Positions 5,798-41,226 of a stretch of DNA of 64,000 nucleotides are shown here, one piece after another. A model generated the notes under the pieces. It made no database searches. It was not told the DNA's origin and saw nothing but the letters and a program-made list of their open reading frames with translations. Numbering within the stretch: the stretch's first letter is position 1; each line of letters opens with the position of its first letter. This stretch comes from Squalus acanthias (lineage: Eukaryota), in the NCBI GenBank assembly GCA_030390025.1, contig CM059431.1, positions 125,738,001-125,802,000 of the forward strand, given 5' to 3'. A program made the position numbers and the translations under genes.

Positions 5798-5836
5798 TGC
5801 TACTTGAGACCCCATCTTGTTCACCTCTTTACTTCT

Positions 5837-7335
5837 TTAGTGCCTAAAGTATTTGGCTAAAATAGCCCCCCAAATCCTTAATCTTTCTTTTCCTAGCACT
5901 CCAACATGGTGCAACCCCTGTGGCTTGCGCAGAGGTAGAGGCAGGCTGCTCAGATCCCTGCTCTGACTGTTGAGCTGCTCTTGGCCGACGGCCTCTGGGT
6001 TTTGGGGCCCGCGAGGGCCTCGCCAAAGACAGCTCCACCTGCACCTGTGCAGGGGTAGACTCGGCCATCGGGACTCAAAGCAGCATGTTGGGTACTGACT
6101 GTGTGGGGGGTGGGGCAACGGATGAGAATTGGAAGTGCTTTGAATGGAGCCCGCACTTCCGTGTCCCCGTTCACTATCATCTCTCTCATGGCCCAGCCAC
6201 ACGTCATTGCTACCACTGTGCTGGAGAGCACTCTGTTGCAGATCAGTGGGGCACTGCAAGGCCAAGGCTAGGGTATCTGTCAACTTATTTAAGGTGGCAT
6301 CCAGAGTCTGCAAGCCCTTGCTTAAGGCCTGCATGGACTCATGTGATTGCTGTGTTTGATGTTCCATGACGTTGGCTAGTCTATCCATGTAAGAAGACAT
6401 CATCGCAGTGCCTTGCGACATCAACCCACTCATGCTTGAGGCTGACTTCTCCAATCTCTCTGCAGTCGTGGTCAATGTGCTTTGAAGGCCTGTCAGTACA
6501 TCACACACTCGCTGCTGTTGCTCAATGATTATCCTCTTCATCAATGGCCCCCGGGATACAGCATCTGTGTCCAGCTGAGCAGAGCTTGGAGAGGGCTATG
6601 CCCTCCGACATGGACTCTCCACTGCTGTCCCTGCCACCACCATCTGCTCTTGCTCACTTGTGAAGTGTGAGTCTCCAGGTGAAAACCCATCTATCTGTCT
6701 TACTGGTCCCACCTGCGAGTATCTGAGCTGGTGCATGGTATGCAGAGACTCCACTGATCTCCAGCGCCTCCTCCTCTGCACTTGTGAGTTGCGAGATGGC
6801 TGGAGGGCCACCTCCAGTTCTCTGCATCTTCCTGGTGTTTTGTGCTCTCTTATCCGGCAAGGAGGGAAGGAACAGACCTACGAGTGAGTATAATTCCATG
6901 TGTTTATCAGATGATGGAGAGCATTTAGTATGGCTGAGTATCATGGAGAGGCATGACATTGCAGAAGGATGGGGGTGAGCATCAGTGGTGGATGGATAGA
7001 TGGGGATGTGAGGAAGTGCATAGACAGAGAGGGATGAGTGCACCTGCAAAGTAAGTGGGTATGAGGAGTGATGTGATGGAGTAGCTTGAGAAGGCAAGGT
7101 GTGGGGGTGGGTGATTCAAACAATGTAGGTGAATGTACCACTGTACTCACCTTTTTTTACCTGGTTAGGTCATTAAAATGTTTCCTGCACTGCATGCAAG
7201 AGCGTGGAACTACAGTCCTGCTGCTGACCACCACTGCAGTCTCCAACTATGAGTTCTTGGTCTCTGCCGCAGGGTTTTTCCTCCCATTGCTGGAGAATAG
7301 TATCTCCCACTATTAAAATAGTATTTCTGCCACCT
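5837..7335 (-). pseudogene. Harbinger Myb/SANT-like second gene, intron-containing remnant
   Basis: KRAQNTRKMQRTGGGPPAISQLTSAEEEALEI (TGGG motif of MSANTD-type proteins) plus a coiled-coil ORF at 5837-6544. Confidence 0.65.
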
Positions 7336-17997: not shown

Positions 17998-19598
17998 TGT
18001 AGAATTCGCAATATATCGCGATTTGATTAATAAGGAGAAAACACAAAGTTTCGTTCAAACAGCTTTTATTTCAGCAGAATGCTGGCAGGTTTAAATTGGA
18101 CACAAGCAGCCTGTAAAATGGCCGCCGCACCTCGTGACAGAACATTCTAGACTTTTCAACAGGCAGACAAGATGGCGTTCCATTAAACATTTGTGCAAGA
18201 TCGATAACGATTCAGCACAGTGAAGATAATACACGAGACATTATGGGTTTGCAGTATAAACATAGATACTGGAATCGGTCTCCCAGGTACAAAGGAAAGC
18301 CATTGTACCGAGTAATCAAGGGCCCATCCAAAGGACATTAATATGTAAACTCCCAACGACTCTACGATGAGAGAGCCGTTAGCAGGTAGTTATACATGAC
18401 ACTTGGAAGCCCCAAACCCCTCCAGGGAGAACACCGACCGATTTAACAATGGGAGAAATATTAACAGGTACTCAAACATTCATGAGTAGCCCCGAAACCC
18501 ATTAAGAACGGAGATCACCCATACAAGACATTTGGGCGCCAAACCCTAAACAAAAGAATGGACATTATAGTTGGGCGGGAAACGGAAGATTTTTGCACTA
18601 TAATTGCAGGCCCCAAACCGTCCATTCGCTCTCTTGCCTCTTGCCTCGTGCTCTTGTTCGTGCTCCTGCGTTCGCTCGCTTGCTCCTGTGTTTTATCCGG
18701 TCGATTCGTAACCTCGTGGCTGCTCCTGTGTACTCGTAGTTGGGCTTCTGCGTGCCTGTTGCCTCTTCTGAAAAGACTGTTGAACTTTCTGATCCGTACG
18801 GATCTACCTCGTGTCGCGAAACGAAGACCTATGTTGGTAACTGGCAGCGGAACCAAAGGCCCGAGATGAGATGAGATGAGAGGAGAAGAGAAGAAGACCA
18901 TATCCATCGCCACGGTCAGTAAATCCCGACCGCGCCTGTAGGTCGATCAGCCAAGTTTCTCCTTGCCAGGAAGACTTCTTTGAACTTTAAAGGACAGACC
19001 CCGGAAGATTCTCCTTTGAGATATTGACTAATCTGTGAAACCCACCAACAGAGGTCTTCATCACAGCAGACGGTCCAGCCTACTAGCCGAAGCAGCAGAA
19101 GCAAGTAAACAAGTGGGACCAGGAGATCTCCTGACCGACACGTGGGTGCTGCGGTGAAAAACATCCGATCAGCTATTCGGAATTTCTCCGAGTTATCACG
19201 AGTGGTGAGCATGAGTCTCGAGATCCTACGAAGCTAGTTTAGGATAGATATTGATAGGGGAGGGTTTAAAGATTAAGGATATTTGTAATGTGTGCCCCTA
19301 TTTACGTTGTGCCGTTCGTTCCTCGTTTCCCTAAGATCGACTATATAACTGTTTGTAAGATTGTACTGTCATTAATCTGTGCTTATGACATGTATTTCAT
19401 AATTTTAAGTATCATGCAATAAAGTTTTTCCATTTCGTACCATTCAAACCAAGTCTACATGAGTTTTATCTCCATTACTGCTCTCGCATCTAAGTCCAGT
19501 GTCTAGAACCGTAAGGGAGAGTGATTCGAACCACTCACAGGTGTGTCTAGTGTTCCCAGACAGGCTGGAGACCAGAACAGGCAACCAGGCCTAGACCC
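17998..19598 (+). repeat. Outer provirus 5' LTR, first 1601 bp
   Basis: Identical by eye to 41650-43250 (offset 23652). TATAAT at 18599, donor GT at 19205, AATAAA at 19418. Confidence 0.95.
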
Positions 19599-21195
19599 TG
19601 TAAGGGATTCTCTCCTGACCCTGCGTGTCTCGTAGCCTGTGAGATTCACGCGGCTCTGTGCAGCCTGTATGTCAGTGCGGGTCTAGGCCTGGTCTCCAGC
19701 CAGTCTGGGAACACTAGACACCCCTGTGAGTGGTTCGAATCACTCTCCCTTACGGTTCTAGACACTGGACTTAGATGCGAGAGCAGTAATGGAGATAAAA
19801 CTCATGTAGACTTGGTTTGAACGGTACGAAATGGAAAATCTTTATTGCATGATACTTAAAATTATGAAATACATGTCATATGCACAGATTAATGACAGTA
19901 CAATCTTACAAACGGTTATAATCACTCTTAGGGAAACGAGGAACGACCAGCACAACGTAAATAGGGCACACATTACAAATATCCTTAATCTTTAAACCCT
20001 CCCCTATCAATATCTATCCTAAAACTAGCTTCGTAGGATCTCGAGACTCATGCTCACCACTCGTAATAACTCGGAGAAATCCCGAATAGCTGATCGGATG
20101 TTTTTCACCGCAGCACCCACGTGTTGGTCAGGAGATCTCCTGGTCCCACTTGTTTACTGCTTCTGCTGCTCGGTCAGTCGGCTGGACCGTCCGCTGTAGT
20201 GAAGACCTCTGTTGGTTGGATACAAGGTATGGTGGAGCACCGTTGTCAATATCGCTGATACGATGTGTTTGCACAGTCCAGTTATCGTCGATGCAATATG
20301 TCTTGTTAAAGAAGAAAACTTCCTGTCGAGAAGACTTGGCTGATCGACCTACAGGCGCGGTCGGAATCTACTGACCGTGGCGATGGATAAGGTCTTCTTC
20401 TCTTCTCCTCTCATCTCATCTCATCTCATCTCATCCCGGGCCTTCGGTTCCGCTGCCAGCTACCAACATAGGTCTTTGCAACAGTCTTTTACACAGGAGC
20501 AGCCACGATGATAACAGCAACAAGCGGCAAGAGTCAAGAACACGAGGCAAGAGCAAGAGCAAGAGGCCAGAGAGAGAATGGACGGTTTGGGGCCTGCAAT
20601 TATAGTGCACAGTTCTTCCGTTTCCCGCCCAACTACAATGTCCATTCTTTTGTTTAAGGTTTGGCGCCCAAAATGTCCTGTATGGGTGATCTCTGTCCTT
20701 AATGGGTTTCGGGGCTACTCCTGAATGTTTGAGTACCTGTTAATATTTCTCCCATTGTTAAATCGGTCGGTGTTCCCCCTGGAGGGGTTTGGGGCTTCCA
20801 AGTGTCCTGTATAACTACCTGCTAACGGCTCTCTCATCGTAGAGCCGTTGGGAGTTTACATATTAATGTCCTTTGGATGGGCCCTTGATGGCTTTCCTTT
20901 GTACCTGGGAGACCGATTCCAGTATCGATGTTTATACTGTAAACCCATAATGTCCTGTGTATTGTCTTCACTGTGCTGAATCGTTATCGATCTTGCAAGA
21001 ATGTTTATTGGAACGCCATCTTGTCTGCCTGCTGAAAAGTCTAGAATGTTCTGTCACGCGGTGCGGCGGCCATTTTACAGGCTGCTTGTGTCCAATTTAA
21101 ACCTGACAGCATTCCGCTGAAATAAAAGCTGTTTTGAACGAAACTTTGTGTTTTCTCCTTATTAAAATGAAATCGCGATAATTGCGAATTCTACA
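19599..21195 (-). repeat. Inner provirus 3' LTR
   Basis: Preceded on the minus strand by AACAGGAGGGAC; direct repeat of 30574-32170. Confidence 0.95.
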
Positions 21196-21619
21196 GTCCC
21201 TCCTGTTGATGCGAATAACTCCGCTTATCGTATCAAAAATCTCAGTGGTGAGCAATCTTATCTCGATTTCACTCCGAATCCAGTAAATTAATCCCATAAA
21301 TTTTAACTTCACTAGGGTCTCTGTGTCGTCCTCATTTCCCAAGAAAAGTCACATTTTATATCACCGTAGGCATCATTTGCCCTTAAACTTACACCACTTG
21401 TTTTCCTTCCCGGCGTAACCAGGCCGATACCTCACGCATCACCTGTATATTTGTCTTTTATTCAAGGGAAGGAAAAACAAAACCCAAAAACCAAACAATC
21501 AACACCATCACCAAAATAAACAAATCCCGACTCTTAAACATGTCGAGTTTCCAACGTATTTACAATGAGTACAAACTTCCGCGGCGCACGTGGCGAGCGG
21601 GAGTGACGCCATTTTCCCA

Positions 21620-23970
21620 TTACACTGCGCTCTCATCGTGCACGCGCACGTAACGTTCTCGCCACTCTCCCGTGTTCTCATGCTTGGTGAGGCGCTTGTC
21701 TCTTTTACAATGTATGAACAAAAGGTATACTACAATAAACACTTGACAGACGACTAAAATGTGGGAGGCTATTCTGACCCATGAGGGCACTTCAATATTC
21801 GTGAACAGATTCCACCACGGTGGAACCACTATGTCCAAAATGTCTGTACCTATCTCGACAGTTTTCTGCTCTAACGTATAAAAATGCTTCTGTGAAACCG
21901 CGACGGCTTTCAGAAGTTTGGTTAAATGCTCAGGGAGAGGGGGAATGAGGTACCCAAAATGTGCGACAAATCGCTGCAAGTCGGTAAAATTCTCTTTTAC
22001 TGTGAGATGAACAGTGGATGGTTCAGGGATTGGGATAATTCGCTGTTGTGCTACTTGAACTTCAGCCCTGGGTTTAAAACAGAAACTGCTGTCACTCACC
22101 GGACACCGGCTACGGTTTCCATGCTGGTAGTGTTGCGCTGCAGTGGTAACACAATATGTTCCACCCCCGATGTATGCTACCTGCGGAGGCACATGATCTT
22201 GTGCCATTGCCTCCATGGTGCAATTCATGGACTTGGCGCCAGCCGTTCTGAACCCGCACTGTGGTGTTAAAAAGGCATTCAAGTGCTGGGGGCACAGTAT
22301 TATGTGTGCTCCCCTGCCACGACAACCAGAGAGATCTGTACCTGTCATCGTTTGCTCCCAGCGGATGACGTAAGGTGGAACCGCTGCATAACGAATGTGG
22401 GCTCCCCCCTGAATGACACCAATGTTCTCTACCCGATACACCGGGGCGGGCTTTGCTGTGTTGCCCAAAACCGGCATGCGTAATACTATTCCCATAATAG
22501 TATGGTTTGAACGTCCGCAGTCCACGGGGACTGGGTAAGCTTCTGAAGCTAGCCTGAGCTGGCACGGACTTAATGCGTTCTGAAAAGGGTGGAGCGCCCG
22601 CAGGTGTTTGTTACTTATCCAGGACGGGACCAAACCTTGTTTTAAATCCTCCAAATTACTGCGGCCCTCGCCCAGTAACCACGCCCCGTAAAGCACGCAC
22701 ACCTCGTTCTGCGCAGCTTGATCGGATGCATTCCGATCTTCCCTAATCAGGGCATTTACCGTACGCGCATGTTTCTCCAGCTCTGCTATGATTTCCTTTA
22801 AGTGGAGTGTCATGGCTTGGTCCTCGTGCAGACCCGACCCTACCACTTTATTCTCATCTGTAAGAATATCCTTTAACTGTGTTTTTAAACCATTAATCTG
22901 GGTCTGCAGCTCCACACTGTCTAGAGCGTTGACCACAGATGTCCCTGTGTTAAAAGCAGTGAACGCATCGTTCACCAAACCCCTTCTTTGCCTCCCTACT
23001 TGGTCCAAAACTTCCTGCGGTGCGGTGTATAAACTTGTCTTATCAATTTCTGCAAAATCAAACTCGTAAAATTGCCTGAACATCTTGGTCAACAGGACCT
23101 GGTACAACTGTTCCGTCTTTTTGGGGCACCACTCTGGTAACCGTACCTCAGTGAGATTTAAAATCACCGAGGCCACCGCGTAATGTACCCCCTGAAATAG
23201 TATCTGGTCTGTGGGGACCAGTACCAAACCGTTCCCGGGTCCCTTACTAGTTTTAGGGCACCCTTCTTCCTCAGTTAGACTACCGGAATCGTGGGCGGGG
23301 CTTTGCGTGGGCGCGTAATGAGCTCAGTGGCATTTACTGGGATCGGAGAGTATGGGGCTCCGCACCCCCTGGTGCTCGCATCCCACCTCATCCCCTGTCC
23401 GTTATCCTGCCACTGGTTAATAAAGAATATGGAGATGCCTTTGGGGCAAACGTACTTTGACCCCCACATACAAACATAAATCCCCTCATCTGGTTCCCAC
23501 CATTTGTCCCAACAGACTTTCACTTGTCCATCTGTCCCCGTAATTGTCCGATGGGTATTATTACCCAGTCGCTCCCACTCAACCGAAGAGTTCCTCATAG
23601 TTTTGCTCAGCTTTCGCAGCCACCACCATCGGCTCAATGGGACATTCCCACTGCAGGTCAAACAAATCCGTTTGCCGACGGTGACGCTGATCCTGGGTGC
23701 GATGATCCGTACTTTGGGGCACATTAAAGAAGTCTCTTTGTAGGCGAACCCCGATGTGCTGGAATACTCCGTTGAGTTCGTTCCCAGCCATCCTGGCCAC
23801 CTTCCCTTGTGGAAATAGGTGCTGGTCCCTTCTGCCTTCCGTCTCCCGGTCCCATCCACCGCGATGGGGGCCGTGTCCCCGGAACATCCAAACACCACGA
23901 CATCCTTGGTGAGGCCCCGATAGGCCAATCCACATCCGATTGCCACGAGCAAAACTAGAAGTCGTTCCAT
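21620..23970 (-). pseudogene. env: env: signal peptide, Ig-like domain, RQRR furin site, F-protein-like fusion subunit, TM and tail; one frameshift near 23275
   Basis: ORFs 23275-23970 and 21620-23227 are read contiguously across this point in the outer copy. TM IASHILVVCQVFIVVYLLFIHC; YVRV motif in the tail. Confidence 0.9.
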
Positions 23971-24254
23971 CCTTCCTTGGTTCCTGTGATCAGATAGAAT
24001 GAGGTAGCCAGCCTCGCAAAAAGTCTCTGGCTTTTGTGAAGGGTGAGCGGGTCCCCTGACCTCGCCTCACGTAAACTTCAACGTTTGCTGAATAGACTTC
24101 CTCTAAACCTAGCCTTAAAACTCCCATCATTTTATCGTTTTCTGTTAAAAACACTACAAACTTAACCTTATTAAAACTACTTAAAACTTTAAACTAAAAC
24201 TTAAAACCTTAAACTAATAACTTTACAATGCCGCCCGTTCTCAGGGCGGCCCCT

Positions 24255-27200
24255 TTAAATCCTGAGAAGGCTGCTGCGAGCTCTTCCCGACGGTGGGAGG
24301 GCACTGACCCTTCCCTCTGATCTGCCGCAGCCTGTTGCTGCGCTGACCCTTTCCTCTGATCTGCCGCAGCCTGTTACTGCTTCGATGTGGCCTGTCTCTA
24401 CCCGGGTTATCTTAACCTGAAACTTACGCCCTGGGGCAGCCTGTGGACCTGACCACATCTTCCTGGGCTGGGGTACTCTGCTTGACCTACGGGGAATTGC
24501 TATGGGCGGGGGCTCCGTGACGGACGGACCGGGTCCCGAGACCTTCAACGGGATGACCTGGGGTTCCATCACAGGCGCCAGCCCCGCCTCCGCTGACTCC
24601 GCCTCCCTAACCTCGGGGCTGGCAGTTCGGGGCCCCGCCCTGCTCGGCCCAGCAGGCGGCCCTTCACTCGCGAACTCTGCCTCCCCTGAGGACTGGACGT
24701 TCAAAGCGGGCGGCCACACCTCTGGGAACCACATAGCGGCTGGCCCGGCCTCCTCTAGCTCCTTCCTCCTGCTGTCGGGACCTGCAGCTTGTGTGTCCAC
24801 CCCGTATGGATCTCTACCTAGCGGCCCCAATCCTCCAGACCGTTCCTCTGAAACCACCCGTCATCATCACTATGCTCATCTGCACTATCCTCATCTGACC
24901 AGGGTACCCTGGGGTCCTCGTCATCTAACCCCCAACTCCAGAAAAACGCTGCATGATCGTCCGGGATGTCCCTTCCCCTGATGCAAGCTGCTACGCCTGC
25001 CGGTGTGCCTTGTGGTCCTACCTGGGGCTGTGTTTTCCCATTGGCGGGATTTACCCCTGTAGTTTTCCCTTGCGCACCCGGCTGGTACAGTTTACATTGG
25101 TTTATGTGGAACCACTTAGTGCGCCGAGGTACTTTTACGGCGTAAACCATGGGACTTGCCTTGTCTACAATGTTGTAGGGTCCCATATACAGTGGTTCCA
25201 GACTCCCTACTCTGGCGTAGTTTCTGACCATGACCTGGTCTCCTACTTCCCACTCCCGCGTTTTGCGGGGTTCCAGCAACAAGCGATTGCCCTGGTGCTG
25301 CCTTCCCATGTTCCCAGCCGCCTGCTCATAAACTTGCTTCAGGCGCTCCAAGAGAGTTTGGGCGAACTTGTCCCTGCTGATCTCTTGAAGCTGACCCTCA
25401 GTGAGCACCGGGGCTAGCACATGGGTGGGGGTTCGCATGAGCCTGCCGGTCATTACCTCGTGCGGGGAGTACCCCGTACTTTTTGACTGACTGGCCCGGA
25501 CCCCCATGAGGACTAAAGGCAGAACTTCCGCCCATTTTTGGGGCGAGTTCCTAGTCTCTTTCCTCAATTTCTCCTTCAGGGTCCGGTTCATACGTTCAAC
25601 AATCCCGGATGACTGGGGATTGTGTGCTACGTGCCACTTCCCTTCAATGCCCAAAAGCATGAGGGTGTTCTGCATCACCTGGCCGGTGAAATGACTCCCT
25701 TGGTCTGACTCCACGAAACGGGGGAGTCCCCACCGCGAGAACACTTCCCGGACCAAGATTTTTGCTGTACCCAGTGCCGTAGCTGTTCGACAAGGGAAGG
25801 CTTCCACCCACTTGGAAAACACATCCACCAGGACGAGGCAGTACTTATAACCTCCCTGGGTGGTGGGCAGGGGTCCTATATAGTCGATCTGTATCGACTG
25901 CCATGGTCCCTCTACCCTTCTTACGTGTCCCATGGGCACCTTCCTTTTCTGGGGGTCTGGGTTGTTTGCAGCGCACACAAGACAGTTTGCACAGAACTCG
26001 CGGACTTGTTCCCTGAGCCCTGGCCACCATCCCGCTTGCTCTACCCGTTGCCAGGTAACCTCGGGCCCGGGGTGCCCTGCCCCTGGTCCCTCGTGAGCCA
26101 ACTGGAGGAATTCCCTCCTGTGCTGCTGCGGCACAACCCACTGCTCCTCGCGGAACAGCATGCCTTCCTTAACTGAGAGGGTTGCCGTACTGTACGGACC
26201 TTCTACCTGCCTCCCCTCAGCAATCGTTTTTAGGACTGCTTTTAGGGCGGGATCCTGGGCTTGGACGGTCTTAAGGTCTAGGGGCAATGCTACCCTGGTG
26301 TTCCCGGTATTCCCGTCCCCACCTCGGACCGCTGCTATGGGTCCGGTTCTATAGGGGTTCCAGAAAGTACCGTCGCGGGCACCCTCCCTGGCTAGCGCAT
26401 CCGCCTGCCGGTTGCCCTCCCCACGGGGCTCTGTGGAGGAGTGAGCTTTCACCTTATGGATGAAAATCTCCCCTTCCTCCCCTACTGCTGCTGCTAAGAT
26501 CTTTTCCAGCAAGGGCTTTACCGTTAAAGGTCGCCCGTCCGCGGAGGTGTATCCACGGCGGGACCAAATGGCCAGGTATTCCGTACACGAATTGCAGGTG
26601 AACATACTGTCCGAGCAAATCGTGTATGGGGTTGGGAAAATGTCTGGGTGGGTTACCACGTACACCACGGCAGACAGCTCAGCCTGCTGCGCGCTCATGG
26701 TGCTAGGGAGCTTGATCGCCAGGGCAAGGTCTGCCGCAGGGTCATAAACTCCACACCCTGTGAGTCGCTCGCCAGCAGATACTGTGCTAGACCCATCAAC
26801 ATAAATCTCGCGCCCAGTGGGATGTATCCCGGCCCGTAAACCTATGTTGACGTCCCACACCCCCTCCACCGAACACCGGTGGGCTGTACCGGGGTATACC
26901 AAATTGGCCGCAAGCCTGGGCTCGCAAAGACCTTTTACTCTGATGTCCAACTGGGAGAGAAGAAGGGTCCAACGCGCAATGCGTGCGCTGCTTACGGTCC
27001 CGTCTTTAATCCTCCCATCCAGAAGCATCTTAGTTGGTGTGTGATGTGTGAGGAGAGTGATGGGAGAGAGCCCTGTGAAGATCGCTGATCTTTTCACAGC
27101 CCAATGCGTGGCTAAAAGGTGCCTTTCGCAATTGGAAAAACTTCTCTCCACATCCGTTAATACCCTGGATGAATAGACAACCGGCCTCAGCTTGCCGTGA

Positions 27201-28756
27201 CGCTCTTGGAGCAGCACGGCGCTTAAGCTGTCTCCGCTGGCAGCTACCTCCAGGAAAAACTCCTTCCCCCCATCTATGGCCCCTAAGGCTGGCGCGGTCT
27301 GCAGATCCCTTTTTAACTTCTCGAAGGCTGCTTGGCAGCCCTCGTCCCAAAGCCACTCTACTCCCTTATGGAGGAGTCGGAGGAGCGGCGCCGCTGTGGC
27401 CGCATAATCCTCGATAAAATCCCTGCAGTAACCGGTCAGTCCCAAGAAGGACCTCACACCCCTTACGTTGTTGGGAATCGGTAATTCTTGCACCGACTCC
27501 CTCCTTGCTTTGTCTATGGCTCTTTCCCCAGCGCGTAGGGTCAGTCCCAGGAATTTTACTTCCTGCTGACCGATACGTGCTTTCTTTGGGTTTACTTTAA
27601 AACCCTTTCTCGCTAACAGCTCCAATAACTCGTCCAGTAGTGGTCCGTGCTCCTCCCTTGAGTCCGTAAATAGGAGCAAATCATCCACATACTGTACTAT
27701 CTGATTGGGCTGACTAAACTCCTTTAAACTTCCTGCCATACACTGGTGAAAAATACTGGGGCTATTGTGGAAACCCTGTGGCAAGCAGTTCCACGTGTAC
27801 TGTTGCCCTTTAAACGTAAAGGCAAACTTGTACTGGTCCTCTCGCCGCAGCGGGATGGACCAAAAACCGTTCGAGATATCCAGCACCGTGAACGTGGTCG
27901 CGGACGCTGGGATGCTCCCTATTAGGTCAGCAACTGCTGCTACTGTGGGCGCGCAGGCGGGGATGTTACTGTTAAGGACTCTGTAGTCCACCGTGGCTCT
28001 CCACGAATTATCCGGCTTCCTAACCGGCCATAATGGGGAGTTCACGTGTGTGGCTATCGGCCTCAACACGCCCTGCTGCACCAAGGAAGACATTGCTGCC
28101 TCCATATCGGGTTCTGCTTCTTTGGGGAAGTTATACTGCTTTTGGGGTCGGGTCATGGGGTCCCCATCTACGCTGACCTCAAACCCGACCACCCTCCCAC
28201 AATCGTGCTTGTGGGTTGCAAACGCGTGCATATTATCTGTCACGTACGTTTGCATGTCCGTTGGGACATCTGCGACCATAAGCCTGAGGTCGTAGCCTCC
28301 GGATGGCTGTACGGTACACAGGACCCCTGTTTCTTCCTCCCCTTGAATTACCATTACCTCGCCTTTTTCACCTTTAGCCCCCCAGAGACAGTGATTTCTG
28401 AGGTCCACGAGGATCCCGTGTCCCGCTAGCAGATCGGACCCGAGAATACCTCTTCCACCCCCCTTTTGCCATGCCATCAGTATACACTTCCACTTAAGGC
28501 GAAGTGTCCCTAAACGAATGGATAGCGGGAGGGAAAACGTGCCAGCCTGTTCTTTCCCTGTGAACCCTGCTAGCGTGAATGGGACCTTGGTAGATAGCGG
28601 CGAGTCAAAAGGGTCATCTGTATGGATTATGGTGCAAGAAGCTCCCGTGTCCAACAAATAACTGCCCTTTTGTTTCTCTACCTCCATCTCCACCACAGGT
28701 CGCCTCCACGCATCATAGCTGAGCGGACACAGGTAGACGGGCTGTGCTGGTTCTAG
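24255..28756 (-). CDS. pol: pro-pol (PR, RT, tether, RNase H, IN) plus acidic/Pro-rich C-terminal extension (frameshift near 24835)
   Basis: LLDTGAS; LDISNGFW, LPQG, YVDD; YVDGSS/AQQAEL/SDS/GNRQAD; HHCC, QIDYIG/ESDQG/VERMN, GPY. The enzymatic part (24818-28756) is open. Confidence 0.95.
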
Positions 28757-30569
28757 TCATGGGGCACTATTAGACGGTCCTGCGGCACCTACGGGGCCGG
28801 TTGCGACCGCCACCTGTCCACGCGCATTCAAAACCATCTTGCGCATGACTCCTAACACTGCTTCGAGGTCTTCGGGAGAGGTGGGTGCCTTTGCTTCCTT
28901 AGCCGGGACAGGCGCCTGGGTTCGGACCGCGGGATTTTTATCCTTGGAATCCTTCCAAGGGTTCCTGCAGTGCTTGCGCCAGTGCCCTGTCTTCCCACAC
29001 CCGTAACAGGCATTACTTGCCTGTGGGGCGCGATTACCCTCCTGATGCCACTCTCTTTGAGTCGGGGCTGCGGGTCGTACCTCATGTACTCTTCCCTTAA
29101 AGGGACGTGTCGTCATACCCCTTATGTTACGGTAACCTAACGTGAGTCGATTCAAGACCGACTCTTCCGTAAGGTTGAGGTCATTGGGATCGAACCAGGC
29201 TTTTGCCTGCTCTCTAACGGCTGGTAAACTGTTGGCTATTATGCACCTAAGCCAATGAATTAAAGCGGCGCCTTCCACATCTTCGCGCTCGGGCGCACCT
29301 AGACAGCTGCGCTCATATACTGGCCACAGCCTGTCGGCAAAAACCTTCGGGGGTTCTCCCTCCATCTGCACTGTCTGTCCCACTCTAGCAAACGGACCTC
29401 CGTCGTTCGCTCCCACTACTTCTAGGACCTCATTTTTCAATTCCTCATAACTTTTATTACCCCTCTTGCTATCGCCTGAGAGACACTGAAGGACCGAGCT
29501 ATCTAAAGAGAACAGCAGCATTTTTGCTGTCTCCCCATCATCGCAGCCGTTGATGGCTGCGGCTTGCTCAACTTCCCTAAAATGTACGGAAGGGTCGTCT
29601 ATCTCGGTCAGCTTCCTTACGTGGTTTATCATGGCCCTCAGCTGATGTGAACTGTGAGGCAACACCAGCTGTCCGAGGAGATCCCCCGGTTCTTCCCCAC
29701 CGTTTCTGCTTGGGCCCCTTTTAATCCCCGTTACTGGATACAACGATCCCTTTTCTACCTCCTTTTCAACGGGCTCTTTTGCTTCTTCCGTTGCTTCCTC
29801 CCTAACCCAGGTTTCTGAATAGCTGGGTGGCGCGGAGGGCGCAGTGGCTACTACTTCTTCTGCTTTACTTGGTGGGGAATTTCTAAATCTCTCATTTACT
29901 AGCGGCTGGCGTGCCGACGGATTAATAAGGCACACCATGCCGTTCGCATTATTCACGGCCTTTTTGAGGCTCTCTATCTCTTTTTCGCAGGCGCTATGGT
30001 CGGCTCCCTGAAACTTATCCTCAAGGGCCAACTTATACGCCGACCTAACCCCCATTAAGCTCTCTTCTTGAGTTCTTATCTGGGCAGCTTGACGGTTACA
30101 TCTTTCCTTCATCCTACTCTCGTTTAATTTTGCTTCAGTGATCTGGCACTCGAGATACTCTACCCTTGTTTTAAGGTAACTGGAGACTTCCTGGCTTTCC
30201 TGGCGTAACTCATTTAAACTCTTAATGAGCGCCTCCCCTCCAGAAACCTTCTCCTCCATTTCCTCCTCTAGACTGCTTGATTCGAGCGGTTAGCGCTGTA
30301 TTGGTCTGGTTTGAAATCTGAACCTGCCTTTTGTAGCACATAAGCCAGACTGCTTTCTCAACTGCCTTTTTATGCTCCTTACTATCCGTCCACCTTTCAG
30401 CTGCCTCTAGTGGGCTCTTATCCGCTAACAATTCGCTTATCCACTTTTTCGTTAGATTAACCTTTCCAAATACGTAATCCGCTATCTTTTCCTGCATCAC
30501 ATTTCGTACAGTCATTCCAAAATCTAACACACTACCCTCTCGCTGCCAGTGTCCTGCCGCGGTCGCCAT
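28757..30569 (-). pseudogene. gag: gag (coiled-coil N-terminus, PSAPPSY, capsid, CCHC knuckle); one frameshift near 30278
   Basis: ORFs 30222-30569 and 28757-30259; CYGCGKTGHWRKHC; VQMEGEPPKVFADRL. Confidence 0.92.
30551..30568 (-). promoter_or_regulatory. Primer-binding site, tRNA-Arg(UCG)
   Basis: TGGCGACCGCGGCAGGAC, 5 nt after the LTR, complementary to the recalled 3' end of vertebrate tRNA-Arg-TCG (GTCCTGCCGCGGTCG-CCA). Confidence 0.85.
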
Positions 30570-30573
30570 TTTC

Positions 30574-32170
30574 TGTAAGGGATTCTCTCCTGACCCTGCG
30601 TGTCTCGTAGCCTGTGAGATTCACGCGGCTCTGTGCAGCCTGTATGTCAGTGCGGGTCTAGGCCTGGTCTCCAGCCAGTCTGGGAACACTAGACACCCCT
30701 GTGAGTGGTTCGAATCACTCTCCCTTACGGTTCTAGACACTGGACTTAGATGCGAGAGCAGTAATGGAGATAAAACTCATGTAGACTTGGTTTGAACGGT
30801 ACGAAATGGAAAATCTTTATTGCATGATACTTAAAATTATGAAATACATGTCATATGCACAGATTAATGACAGTACAATCTTACAAACAGTTATAATCAC
30901 TCTTAGGGAAACGAGGAACGACCAGCACAACGTAAATAGGGCACACATTACAAATATCCTTAATCTTTAAACCCTCCCCTATCAATATCTATCCTAAAAC
31001 TAGCTTCGTAGGATCTCGAGACTCATGCTCACCACTCGTAATAACTCGGAGAAATCCCGAATAGCTGATCGGATGTTTTTCACCGCAGCACCCACGTGTT
31101 GGTCAGGAGATCTCCTGGTCCCACTTGTTTACTGCTTCTGCTGCTCGGTCAGTCGGCTGGACCGTCCGCTGTAGTGAAGACCTCTGTTGGTTGGATACAA
31201 GGTATGGTGGAGCACCGTTGTCAATATCGCTGATACGATGTGTTTGCACAGTCCAGTTATCATCGATGCAATATGTCTTGTTAAAGAAGAAAACTTCCTG
31301 TCGAGAAGACTTGGCTGATCGACCTACAGGCGCGGTCGGGATCTACTGACCGTGGCGATGGATAAGGTCTTCTTCTCTTCTCCTCTCATCTCATCTCATC
31401 TCATCTCATCCCGGGCCTTCGGTTCCGCTGCCAGCTACCAACATAGGTCTTTGCAACAGTCTTTTACACAGGAGCAGCCACGATGATAACAGCAACAAGC
31501 GGCAAGAGTCAAGAACACGAGGCAAGAACAAGAGCAAGAGGCAAGAGAGCGAATGGACGGTTTGGGCCTGCAATTATAGTGCACAGTTCTTCCGTTTCCC
31601 GCCCAACTACAATGTCCATTCTTTTGTTTAAGGTTTGGCGCCCAAAATGTCCTGTATGGGTGATCTCTGTCCTTAATGGGTTTCGGGGCTACTCCTGAAT
31701 GTTTGAGTACCTGTTAATATTTCTCCCATTGTTAAATCGGTCGGTGTTCCCCCTGGAGGGGTTTGGGGCTTCCAAGTGTCCTGTATAACTACCTGCTAAC
31801 GGCTCTCTCATCGTAGAGCCGTTGGGAGTTTACATATTAATGTCCTTTGGATGGGCCCTTGATGGCTTTCCTTTGTACCTGGGAGACCGATTCCAGTATC
31901 GATGTTTATACTGTAAACCCATAATGTCCTGTGTATTGTCTTCACTGTGCTGAATCGTTATCGATCTTGCAAGAATGTTTATTGGAACGCCATCTTGTCT
32001 GCCTGCTGAAAAGTCTAGAATGTTCTGTCACGCGGTGCGGCGGCCATTTTACAGGCTGCTTGTGTCCAATTTAAACCTGACAGCATTCCGCTGAAATAAA
32101 AGCTGTTTTGAACGAAACTTTGTGTTTTCTCCTTATTAAAAATGAAATCGCGATAATTGCGAATTCTACA
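30574..32170 (-). repeat. Inner provirus 5' LTR
   Basis: Adjacent to the PBS; about 8 differences from 19599-21195. Confidence 0.95.
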
Positions 32171-38875: not shown

Positions 38876-41226
38876 ATGGAACGAATTCTAGTATTGCTCG
38901 TGGCAATCGGATGTGGATTGGCCTATCGAGGCCACACCAAGGATGTCGTGGTGTTTGGATGTTCCGGGGACACGGCCCCCATCGCGGTGGATGGGACCGG
39001 AAGACGGAAGGCAGAGGGGACCAGCACCTATTTCCACAAGGGAAGGTGGCCAGGATGGCTGGGAACGAACTCAACGGAGTATTCCAGCACATCGGGGTTC
39101 GCCTACAAAGAGACTTCTTTAATGTGCCCCAAAGTAAGGATCATCGCACCCAGGATCAGCGTCACCGTCGGCAAACGGATTTGTTTGACCTGTAGTGGGA
39201 ATGTCCCATTGAGCCGATGGTGGTGGCTGCGAAAGCTGAGCAAAACTATGAGAAACTCTTCGGTCGAGTGGGAACGACTGGGTAATAATACCCATCGGAC
39301 AATTACGGGGACAGACGGACAAGTGAAAGTCTGTTGGGACAAATGGTGGGAACCGGATGAGGGATTTATGTATGTATGTGGGGGTCAAAGTACGTTTGCC
39401 CCAAAGGCATCTCCATATTTTTTATTAATCAATGGCAGGATAACGGACAGGGGATGAGGTGGGATGCGAGCACCAGGGGGTGCGGAGCCCCATTCTCCCC
39501 GATCCCAGTAAATGCCACTGAACTCATTACGCGCCCACGCAAAGCCCCGCCCACGATTCCGGTGGTTCTAGCTGAGGAAGAAGGGTGCCCTAAAACTAGT
39601 AAGGGACCCGGAAACGGTTTGGTACTGGTCCCCACAGACCAGATACTATTTCAGGGGGTACATTACGCGGTGGCCTCGGTGATTTTAAATCTCACTGAGG
39701 TACGGTTACCAGAGTGGTGCCCCAAAAAGACGGAACAGTTGTATCAGGTCCTGTTGACCAAGATGTTCAGACAATTTTACGAGTTTGATTTTGCAGAAAT
39801 TGATAAGACAAGTTTGTACACCGCACCGCAGGAAGTTTTGGATCAAGTAGGGAGGCAAAGAAGGGGTTTGGTGAACGATGCGTTCACTGCTTTTAACACA
39901 GGGACATCTGTGGTCAACGCTCTAGACAGTGTGGAGCTGCAGACCCAGATTAATGGTTTAAAAACACAGTTAAAAGACATTCTAACAGATGAGAATAAAG
40001 TGGTAGGGTCAGGTCTACACGAGGACCAAGCCATGACTCTCCATTTAAAGGAAATTATAGCAGAGCTGGAGAAACATGCGCGTACGGTAAATGCCCTGAT
40101 CAGGGAAGATCGGAATGCATCCGATCAAGCTGCGCAGAACGAGGTGTGCGTGCTTTACGGGGCGTGGTTACTGGGCGAGGGCCGCAGTAATTTGGAGGAT
40201 TTAAAACAAGGTTTGGTTCCGTCCTGGATAAGTAACAAACACCTACGGGCGCTCCACCCTTTTCAGAACGCATTAAGTCCGTGCCAGCTCAGGCTAGCTT
40301 CAGAAGCTTACCCAGTCCCCGTGGACTGCGGACGTTCAAACCATACTATTATGGGAATAGTATTACGCATGCCGGTTTTGGGCAACACAGCAAAGCCCGC
40401 CCCGGTATATCGGGTAGAGAACATTGGTGTCATTCAGGGGGGAGCCCACATTCGTTATGCAGCGGTTCCACCTTACGTCATCCGCTGGGAGCAAACGATG
40501 ACAGGTACAGATCTCTCTGGTTGTCGTGGCAGGGGAGCACACATAATACTGTGCCCCCAGCACTTGAATGCCTTTTTAACACCACAGTGCGGGTTCAGAA
40601 CGGCTGGCGCCAAGTCCATGAATTGCACCATGGAGGCAATGGCACAAGATCATGTGCCTCCGCAGGTAGCATACATCGGGGGTGGAACATATTGTGTTAC
40701 CACTGCAGCGCAACACTACCAGCATGGAAACCGTAGCCGGTGTCCGGTGAGTGACAGCAGTTTCTGTTTTAAACCCAGGGCTGAAGTTCAAGTAGCACAA
40801 CAGCGAATTATCCCAATCCCTGAACCATCCACTGTTCATCTCACAGTAAAAGAGAATTTCACCGACTTGCAGCGATTTGTCGCGCATTTTGGATACCTCA
40901 TTCCCCCTCTCCCTGAGCATTTAACCAAACTTCTGAAAGCCGTCGCGGTATCACAGAAACATTTTTATACATTAGAGCAGAAAACTGTCGAAATAGGAAC
41001 AGACATTTTAGACATAGTAATCCCGCCATGGTGGGATCTGTTCACAAACATTCAAGTACCGTCCTGGATCAGAATAGCCTCCCATATTTTAGTCGTCTGT
41101 CAAGTGTTTATTGTAGTGTACCTATTGGTCATACATTGTAAAATAGACAAGCGCCTCACCAAGCATGAAAACACGGGAGAGTGGCGAGAACGTTACGTGC
41201 GCGTGCACGATGAGAGCACCGTGTAA
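38876..41226 (+). pseudogene. env: env; one frameshift near 39362
   Basis: MERILVLLVAIGCGLAY signal peptide after the splice-acceptor-like CTCATTCTATCTGATCACAG (AG at 38861-38862); ORF 39376-41226. Confidence 0.9.

Follow-up and report, generated by a model that had tools for sequence, protein, structure and literature searches.

The stretch of DNA analysed here (hereafter, the window) comprises 64,000 nucleotides of the Squalus acanthias genome (NCBI GenBank assembly GCA_030390025.1, contig CM059431.1, positions 125,738,001 to 125,802,000 of the forward strand), and all positions given below are numbered within it. Its minus strand carries an endogenous retrovirus (ERV), a provirus of 19598..32170 that is bounded by two long terminal repeats in direct orientation (5' LTR, 30573-32170; 3' LTR, 19598-21195). 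One env gene is located after pol, and no separate attachment protein is encoded by the provirus. In intact copies of this ERV family, the envelope protein (Env) has an N-terminal module followed by a fusion part with the architecture of F-type class I fusion proteins, and one portion of this module is very probably a diverged domain of the immunoglobulin (Ig) superfamily (IgSF).

Downstream of pol, an ATG-initiated open reading frame (ORF) of 231 residues is found at 23970-23275 on the minus strand, and it encodes the module. A probable signal peptide is formed by amino acids (aa) 1-16 of Env (MERLLVLLVAIGCGLA; 23923..23970), as read from the hydrophobic N-terminus, with the cleavage point being a likely position. 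The following pre-Ig segment (aa 17-84; 23719..23922) is characterized by the motif GRWPGWLGSNST-YSS, Cys29, Cys84, sequon N65 and invariant columns in an alignment of relatives (A3). The Ig-like (V/I-type) domain occupies aa 85-184 (23419..23718) and has, in addition to the residues of the Ig signature, conserved Cys103, Cys153 and Cys175 as well as sequons N127 and N137. The post-Ig segment (aa 185-231; 23278..23418) contains WQD, Cys203, sequon N213 and a Pro-rich linker, RPRKAPPTIP at aa 220-229, which had already been noted in the first-pass annotation of this DNA. In total, the 231-aa product has 12 Trp, 9 Cys and 4 N-glycosylation sequons. In the numbering of intact copies, in which Env is 783 aa long, the linker and an F2-like segment follow at aa 233-326 (22994..23275, minus strand), including GPGNGLVLVP at aa 244-253. 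Next come a polybasic cleavage motif, RQRR, at aa 327-330 (22982..22993, minus strand; RQRR or RHRR in relatives) and an F1-like subunit (21620..22981, minus strand). The latter comprises a fusion-peptide region from aa 331, a heptad region around aa 355, a Cys-rich core, a membrane-proximal heptad region around aa 700, a transmembrane (TM) segment at aa 731-755 and, after a short tail, the stop codon.

The Ig-like domain is encoded by 23718-23419 on the minus strand and reads ISVTVGKRICLTC, with C106 (codon 23655-23653), Trp at 115-117 (W117, 23622-23620) and EPDEGIYVC ending in C167 (23472-23470). The core signature of IgSF domains consists of a B-strand Cys, a C-strand Trp 11-14 residues later and an F-strand D-x-G-x-Y-x-C, with 55-75 residues between the two Cys. 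All of these elements are present in aa 85-184: W117 stands 11 residues after C106, D161, G163 and Y165 precede C167, and the two Cys are spaced by 61, in full agreement with the coordinates and residues that had been assigned to the pattern earlier. For the chance occurrence of the signature, the pattern G-x(2-5)-h-x-h-x-C-x(8-18)-W-x(30-75)-D-x-[GA]-x-Y-x-C was searched in shuffles of the mature 215-aa sequence. This full pattern was found in none of 20,000 shuffles and a shorter core pattern in three of 20,000, and each of the two was matched only once, at the Ig-like site, in the six-frame translation of the window (64 kb, 127,996 residues). A minimal C..W..Y-x-C pattern was found in 1,783 of 20,000 shuffles, which is not surprising with 12 Trp and 9 Cys in the protein. 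Among 12 aligned sequences, with relatives 45-73% identical, C103, C106, W116, W117 and C153 are invariant and C167 is retained in at least 90%. In the geometry of Ig domains, C103 on the B strand, three residues ahead of C106, and C153 on the E strand would lie side by side on neighbouring strands, at the outer face of the B-E sheet. An additional disulfide between them is conceivable and would account for the invariance of both.

The first-pass annotation had described this domain as fused to the F-like Env. This holds for intact copies and relatives but not for the window copy, in which the 231-aa frame is closed by the stop codon 23277-23275 and a different frame, open over 567 codons down to 21623, holds the fusion part. 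In the window copy, env is thus interrupted at the linker (23270..23280, minus strand), where other copies read through, and the fused protein is not encoded by this copy. When the own genome was searched with the 231-aa product, 150 of 6,074 first-look candidates were scored and their open frames were counted by hand. All of these 150 were 100% identical to the product, and 123 of them had an open frame of at least 815 aa, as compared with 263 aa for the window's own copy. In one copy (L001), the frame of the module runs on across the linker and into the fusion part, and one continuous frame across the junction was also found in skate P0003 and P0007, in P0004 and in three in-genome relatives of 50-60% identity (L032, L031 and L029). 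The sawshark gene model P0013 is likewise continuous across the junction, but only the end of the module is retained before it. The module thus belongs to Env, precedes the F2-like segment and is kept in every lineage seen. As a separate observation, two sawshark gene models (P0008 and P0013) have env fragments joined by automatic annotation to host genes, for a zinc-finger protein and a Niban 1-like protein; these fusions are probably gene-model artefacts around ERV insertions.

For the residues of the Ig-like domain, sequence profiles, ESM Atlas features and fold searches gave concordant results. In Pfam, the window protein matched Ig_3 only, whose profile positions 5-74 (of 78) were aligned with aa 88-167 at E = 0.086 (13.8 bits). 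Ig_3 was also the only recurrent family, being found at E <= 1 in 10 of 12 members (18.6 bits and E = 0.0027 for the best relative). Of the 20 PDB matches listed by phmmer (E <= 10), the top 11 were Ig domains aligned with aa 80-175, JAM being first (E = 0.18) and antibody light-chain V domains next. With a trimmed seven-sequence alignment (A2) as the profile, the six best PDB matches were all IgSF proteins, namely CRTAM IgV (E = 0.0043 and 0.0093), then DIP-eta, OPCML and two entries of neurotrimin. The untrimmed alignment (A1) gave no PDB matches, because unrelated columns diluted the profile. For aa 80-190, all named ESM Atlas clusters listed were of Ig type (ig, V-set, I-set and C1-set) with scores of 0.84-0.85, where scores below 0.9 are to be taken as leads only.

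Structure prediction pointed in the same direction. The AlphaFold model of aa 78-206 (15 rows; predicted local distance difference test, pLDDT, 53; predicted template modelling score, pTM, 0.45) has its strands in the Ig order. All 50 Foldseek matches listed for this model in PDB were Ig V domains of antibodies, VNAR and T-cell receptors (TCR), with E-values of 3e-3 to 1.1e-2; their TMt ranged over 0.30-0.57 and was for the most part 0.43-0.57. When the model was aligned with 48,161 chains by VIA-align, the highest Z was 6.3 (root-mean-square deviation 3.0 Å over 84 residues), a level at which (Z < 8) only a common arrangement may be meant. The 50 VIA matches listed were nearly all of Ig type, both V-set (antibody, TCR, CTLA-4, CD79b and pIgR) and I-set (titin and obscurin), together with a few chains whose titles do not clearly denote Ig, and they cover model residues 8-96, corresponding to Env 85-173. 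In the viral fold library BFVD, no match below E = 0.023 was found. The support for an Ig fold comes from methods that all agree, each being weak when taken singly and none being decisive, and aa 85-184 are best read as an Ig-type domain, as had been proposed from the motif at first.

The remaining part of Env has the architecture of class I F-type proteins: a short F2 precedes RQRR (aa 327-330), and the F1-like part, about 450 aa long, has 10 ectodomain Cys and the TM segment (aa 731-755). Among ESM Atlas clusters, those closest to this part were Baculo_F, Gypsy Env and paramyxovirus Fusion_gly, with scores of 0.94-0.96, at which the recognition value was low. Word-based homologue search with it found only elasmobranch relatives and so provided no computed link to the Envs of bony-fish lokiretroviruses. 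Its sole profile match, Niban 2, was rejected, as it stems from a chimeric gene model in the alignment.

Lokiretroviruses, reported from fish, amphibians and reptiles, have an F-type class I Env, for which a signal peptide, cleavage site, fusion peptide, coiled coil and TM segment are the only parts described in the portions of that paper covered here (Wang and Han, 2021; PMC7947760). We compared by eye the 23 consensus Env proteins of its supplement, in 22 of which the N-terminus is visible. In each of these 22, a hydrophobic signal peptide is followed within about 10 residues by PGPxxG(I/V/L)xL, and R-x-K/R-R and the fusion peptide come about 85-90 residues past the start of PGPxxG (PMC7947760). 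An extra module at this junction was seen in none of the 22 (PMC7947760). The first-pass annotation had suggested a survey of other lokiretrovirus Envs and had known of no such domain in a retroviral Env. In the Env of the window, RQRR follows GPGNGLVLVP after 83 residues. Its F2-like part therefore looks collinear, by eye, with the published Envs, and the preceding residues, about 225 in number, look like an insertion. Since all 22 go directly from the signal peptide to the F2-like segment, the insertion appears to be specific to the elasmobranch clade.

On balance, we favour an architecture in which a diverged V/I-type IgSF domain lies within a Cys-rich, sequon-bearing module of about 225 residues, which follows the signal peptide of an F-type Env, is placed as an insertion ahead of its F2-like segment and would serve as its receptor-binding head. 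The last function is inferred because no attachment protein apart from Env is encoded by the element. If Env is cleaved at RQRR (aa 327-330), the products would be an outer subunit of aa 17-330, consisting of the Ig-bearing module and F2, and a membrane-anchored F1-like subunit with the fusion peptide, heptad repeats and TM segment. After removal of the signal peptide and cleavage, the outer subunit would stay on the F1-like subunit, and the Ig-bearing module would supply receptor binding as the equivalent of retroviral surface subunit (SU) or coronavirus S1. Between two in-genome lineages, the nonsynonymous divergence (dN) was 0.39 for the pre-Ig segment, 0.25 (0.247) for the Ig-like domain, 0.33 for the post-Ig segment, 0.22 for the F2-like part and 0.12 (0.117) for the F1-like part; the module evolves two to three times faster than F1 at the protein level. 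The ratio to synonymous divergence (dN/dS) was about 0.12 for the Ig part, and such ratios are rough, since dS is saturated (1.0 to more than 3, and undefined for F2). The best matches of the Ig-like domain, which have marginal E-values, are N-terminal domains of IgSF adhesion molecules, and this hints at a binding partner of the host that may also be an IgSF protein.

Several results weigh against this interpretation. Every Ig_3 score, including 13.8 bits for the window protein and 18.6 bits for the best relative, is below the 30-bit gathering cut-off, so that the Pfam check returned the expected family but no above-threshold match; the ESM Atlas scores and VIA Z-values fall in the ranges of limited meaning given above. 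Both AlphaFold models are of low confidence: the whole 231-aa module (11 rows) has a pLDDT of 40 with an unreadable pre-Ig segment, and for the domain the strand order and the Ig-only Foldseek matches come from a model with a pLDDT of 53. No Foldseek match in PDB for this model reached E <= 0.001, and hhalign of A2 with a sea-bass multi-Ig protein (P0014) gave a probability of 1.9%, which is uninformative, the template being a single sequence and no secondary structure being used. For the fusion part, Fusion_gly (PF00523) and Baculo_F (PF12259) matched none of seven family members at E <= 10 and PDB sequence searches found no F protein; its F-like nature, as first annotated, is backed by architecture, ESM Atlas features and comparison by eye but not by these profiles. 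The sub-threshold profiles, the low-confidence models and the hhalign value would also be obtained if the module were a Cys/Trp-rich domain of some other fold, still a real N-terminal part of Env, in which the Ig signature has arisen by chance, and the richness in Trp and Cys raises that chance, as seen with the minimal pattern. We consider this unlikely, since the full motif was absent from all 20,000 shuffles, since for the same residues Ig domains and hardly anything else come from Pfam, from sequence searches of PDB, from ESM features and from fold searches, and since the hydrophobic spacing V152-x-W154-x-x-W157-x-x-x-D161-x-G-x-Y-x-C167 fits the canonical E-to-F strand pattern. An Ig-type fold for aa 85-184 is accordingly held with high confidence. 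In the window copy taken by itself, where the ORF stands alone with its own stop codon and the fusion part lies in another frame, the 231-aa ORF could be regarded as a separate accessory gene or a misjoined host exon. This is ruled out by the read-through copies, that is, by the 123 of 150 scored copies with one open frame and by L001, skate P0003/P0007, P0004 and the older lineages, and we give it hardly any weight also because the ORF lies inside an LTR-bounded provirus and begins with a signal-peptide-like sequence, of which the F-like part has none of its own.

If the domain is of Ig type, it may still have a role other than receptor binding, such as a shield against antibodies, an immune decoy mimicking host IgSF proteins or a regulator of fusion triggering. 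The faster evolution of the module (dN of 0.25-0.39 versus 0.12 for F1) and its four N-glycosylation sequons fit a shield as well as a binding domain, and its best PDB profile matches are immune and adhesion IgSF proteins (CRTAM and the IgLON family). Such a role is a minority possibility in our view, because with a single env and no attachment protein something on Env must bind the cell, and because the module is under purifying selection in every lineage seen. The receptor-binding head thus remains the function that we prefer for the module.

Concerning its origin, the domain had been described at first as captured from a host, and no close cellular donor was found among 1.84 billion representative proteins in an all-against-all search. 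The 231-aa product had 13 matches at E <= 0.001 in this set, nine of which are ERV relatives, and the sole cellular Ig protein reached was the sea-bass P0014 with 13 Ig_3 domains (E = 3e-4). Its repeats align with aa 69-124; the score is raised by these repeats, and only strands A to C are covered. The capture is not borne out by this match. Over long times a capture is still plausible, since nearly all canonical IgSF domains are found in cellular proteins, and, if it occurred, it must be older than the divergence of the lineages of this ERV clade in sharks and skates. It is possible, though on present evidence the less probable course, that a clade of F-type-Env retroviruses restricted to sharks, skates and rays acquired long ago a cellular IgSF domain of adhesion type in front of F2 as a receptor-binding head. 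If this is true, a type of fusion protein that elsewhere relies on an attachment partner became a self-sufficient entry machine. Apart from the Ig-like domain, Env aa 21-89 (23910-23704, minus strand), mostly of the pre-Ig segment, resemble the repeat unit of a 5,014-aa bacterial protein (P0011). The match (E = 1.8e-12) was rejected as repeat inflation, being the sum of 16 near-identical repeats that are each weak (31% identity over 70 aa, pairwise E of about 2e-5). A bacterial Big_9/cadherin-like protein (P0015) gave a repeat-inflated match of the same behaviour, and no conclusion was drawn from it.

The pol ORF of the provirus (1,292 aa; 28696-24818, minus strand) contains the Pfam domains RVT_1, RT_RNaseH_2/RT_RNaseH, RNase_H, Integrase_H2C2 and rve. 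RT_RNaseH_2 and RT_RNaseH are at Pol aa 450-582 and RNase_H at aa 630-773; Pol thus has two RNase H domains, one a tether and one acquired, as do lokiretroviruses. The two LTRs are 99.5% identical over 1,599 aligned bases, with 6 mismatches and 2 gaps. The 3.7 Gb genome holds at least 150 copies of the family with an identical N-terminal module, and more than 120 of these have an open env frame. Because of this LTR identity and these copies with an identical module, the family looks very young and highly amplified, and it appears to have been active recently, perhaps still, in this genome. Older in-genome lineages (50-60% identity) are also in the thousands, with first-look candidates numbering about 5,800-6,100.

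Other remains of the same family are present in the window. Between pol and env, a Pro/Glu/Ser-rich ORF at 24255-24857 (minus strand) is split from pol in the window copy; in L001 (247-1221) the same ORF is continuous with the acidic C-terminal tail of pol in an open frame of 324 aa, which points to a second frame break in the window provirus. LTR fragments of the same family at 19044-19575 and 18501-18961, inverted in orientation and 87.5-95.5% identical, abut the 3' LTR and indicate nested or adjacent older insertions. A second env copy on the plus strand (38876-41223) has a near-identical N-terminal module with a frame break near aa 163, inside the Ig-like region, and an F-like part that is 97% identical over 563 aa. 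A third env at 58125-57314 (minus strand) is internally deleted, and its first 47 module residues (72% identical) nearly abut the last 230 F-like residues (89% identical); this copy belongs to an older lineage and has lost the Ig-like domain by the deletion.

Ig-like folds are common in viral attachment proteins. In the literature searched in full text, to the extent that the sources were covered, no paper linked a lokiretrovirus Env with an immunoglobulin domain, and none combined an endogenous retrovirus, shark, envelope and fusion glycoprotein. A conserved Ig-type module placed N-terminal to F2 gives a concrete candidate for the attachment function of an F-type Env. The host range of retroviruses with such an Env also appears to extend to elasmobranchs, which suggests that it is wider than in the parts of the lokiretrovirus study covered here (PMC7947760). 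In the corresponding parts of its main text, no cartilaginous fish is named, and in its supplement none of three genomes of Orectolobiformes (sharks) is positive, the whale shark being among the genomes screened (PMC7947760). Two relatives of the window Env are whale-shark gene models. Either the elasmobranch clade was missed by that survey, or its reverse transcriptase falls outside the Loki clade.

Among known systems, lokiretroviruses are close in organization, with a single env after pol and a dual RNase H in Pol (PMC7947760). As far as their Envs are given in the parts of the paper covered, the order of elements looks the same by eye, from the signal peptide through the F2-like PGPxxG segment, polybasic site, fusion peptide, heptads and Cys-rich core to the TM segment, and a G-x-S-x-x-N motif in the fusion-peptide region appears to be shared (PMC7947760). 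The differences are that lokiretrovirus Envs have about 575-600 aa in contrast to 783 aa here, the roughly 225 residues including the Ig-like domain being extra, and that Fusion_gly was matched by Loki-Str (E = 2.2e-7), whereas it gave no match for the present Env (PMC7947760).

Cellular IgSF proteins (CRTAM IgV, the IgLON family, JAM and sea-bass P0014) are the best sequence matches of the domain itself. Their A'-B-C strands and D-x-G-x-Y-x-C align with it at an identity of about 20-36% over partial domains with marginal E-values, and, unlike them, the viral domain has the extra conserved C103, C153 and C175 and a Trp-rich surface. The F proteins of paramyxoviruses and pneumoviruses, baculovirus F and errantivirus (gypsy) Env are class I proteins with a short N-terminal F2 and a long F1, as in this Env, and they form its nearest ESM Atlas clusters, yet no sequence-profile match connects them with it. 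Paramyxoviruses use a separate attachment protein (HN, H or G), and none of these groups is known to have an IgSF module N-terminal to F2. The receptor-binding domain of gammaretroviruses has an Ig-like topology, is not known to carry the canonical Cys-Trp-Cys signature of IgSF and is combined with a gamma-type TM protein rather than one of F type. No link in sequence or fold was found between the present module and gammaretrovirus SU or coronavirus S1. The logic of these two would be the same, in that a variable, glycosylated N-terminal binder is cleaved from, and yet remains attached to, a conserved fusion subunit. The elasmobranch Env would be a further class I fusion machine to have gained, independently, a modular binding head comparable to retroviral SU and coronavirus S1.

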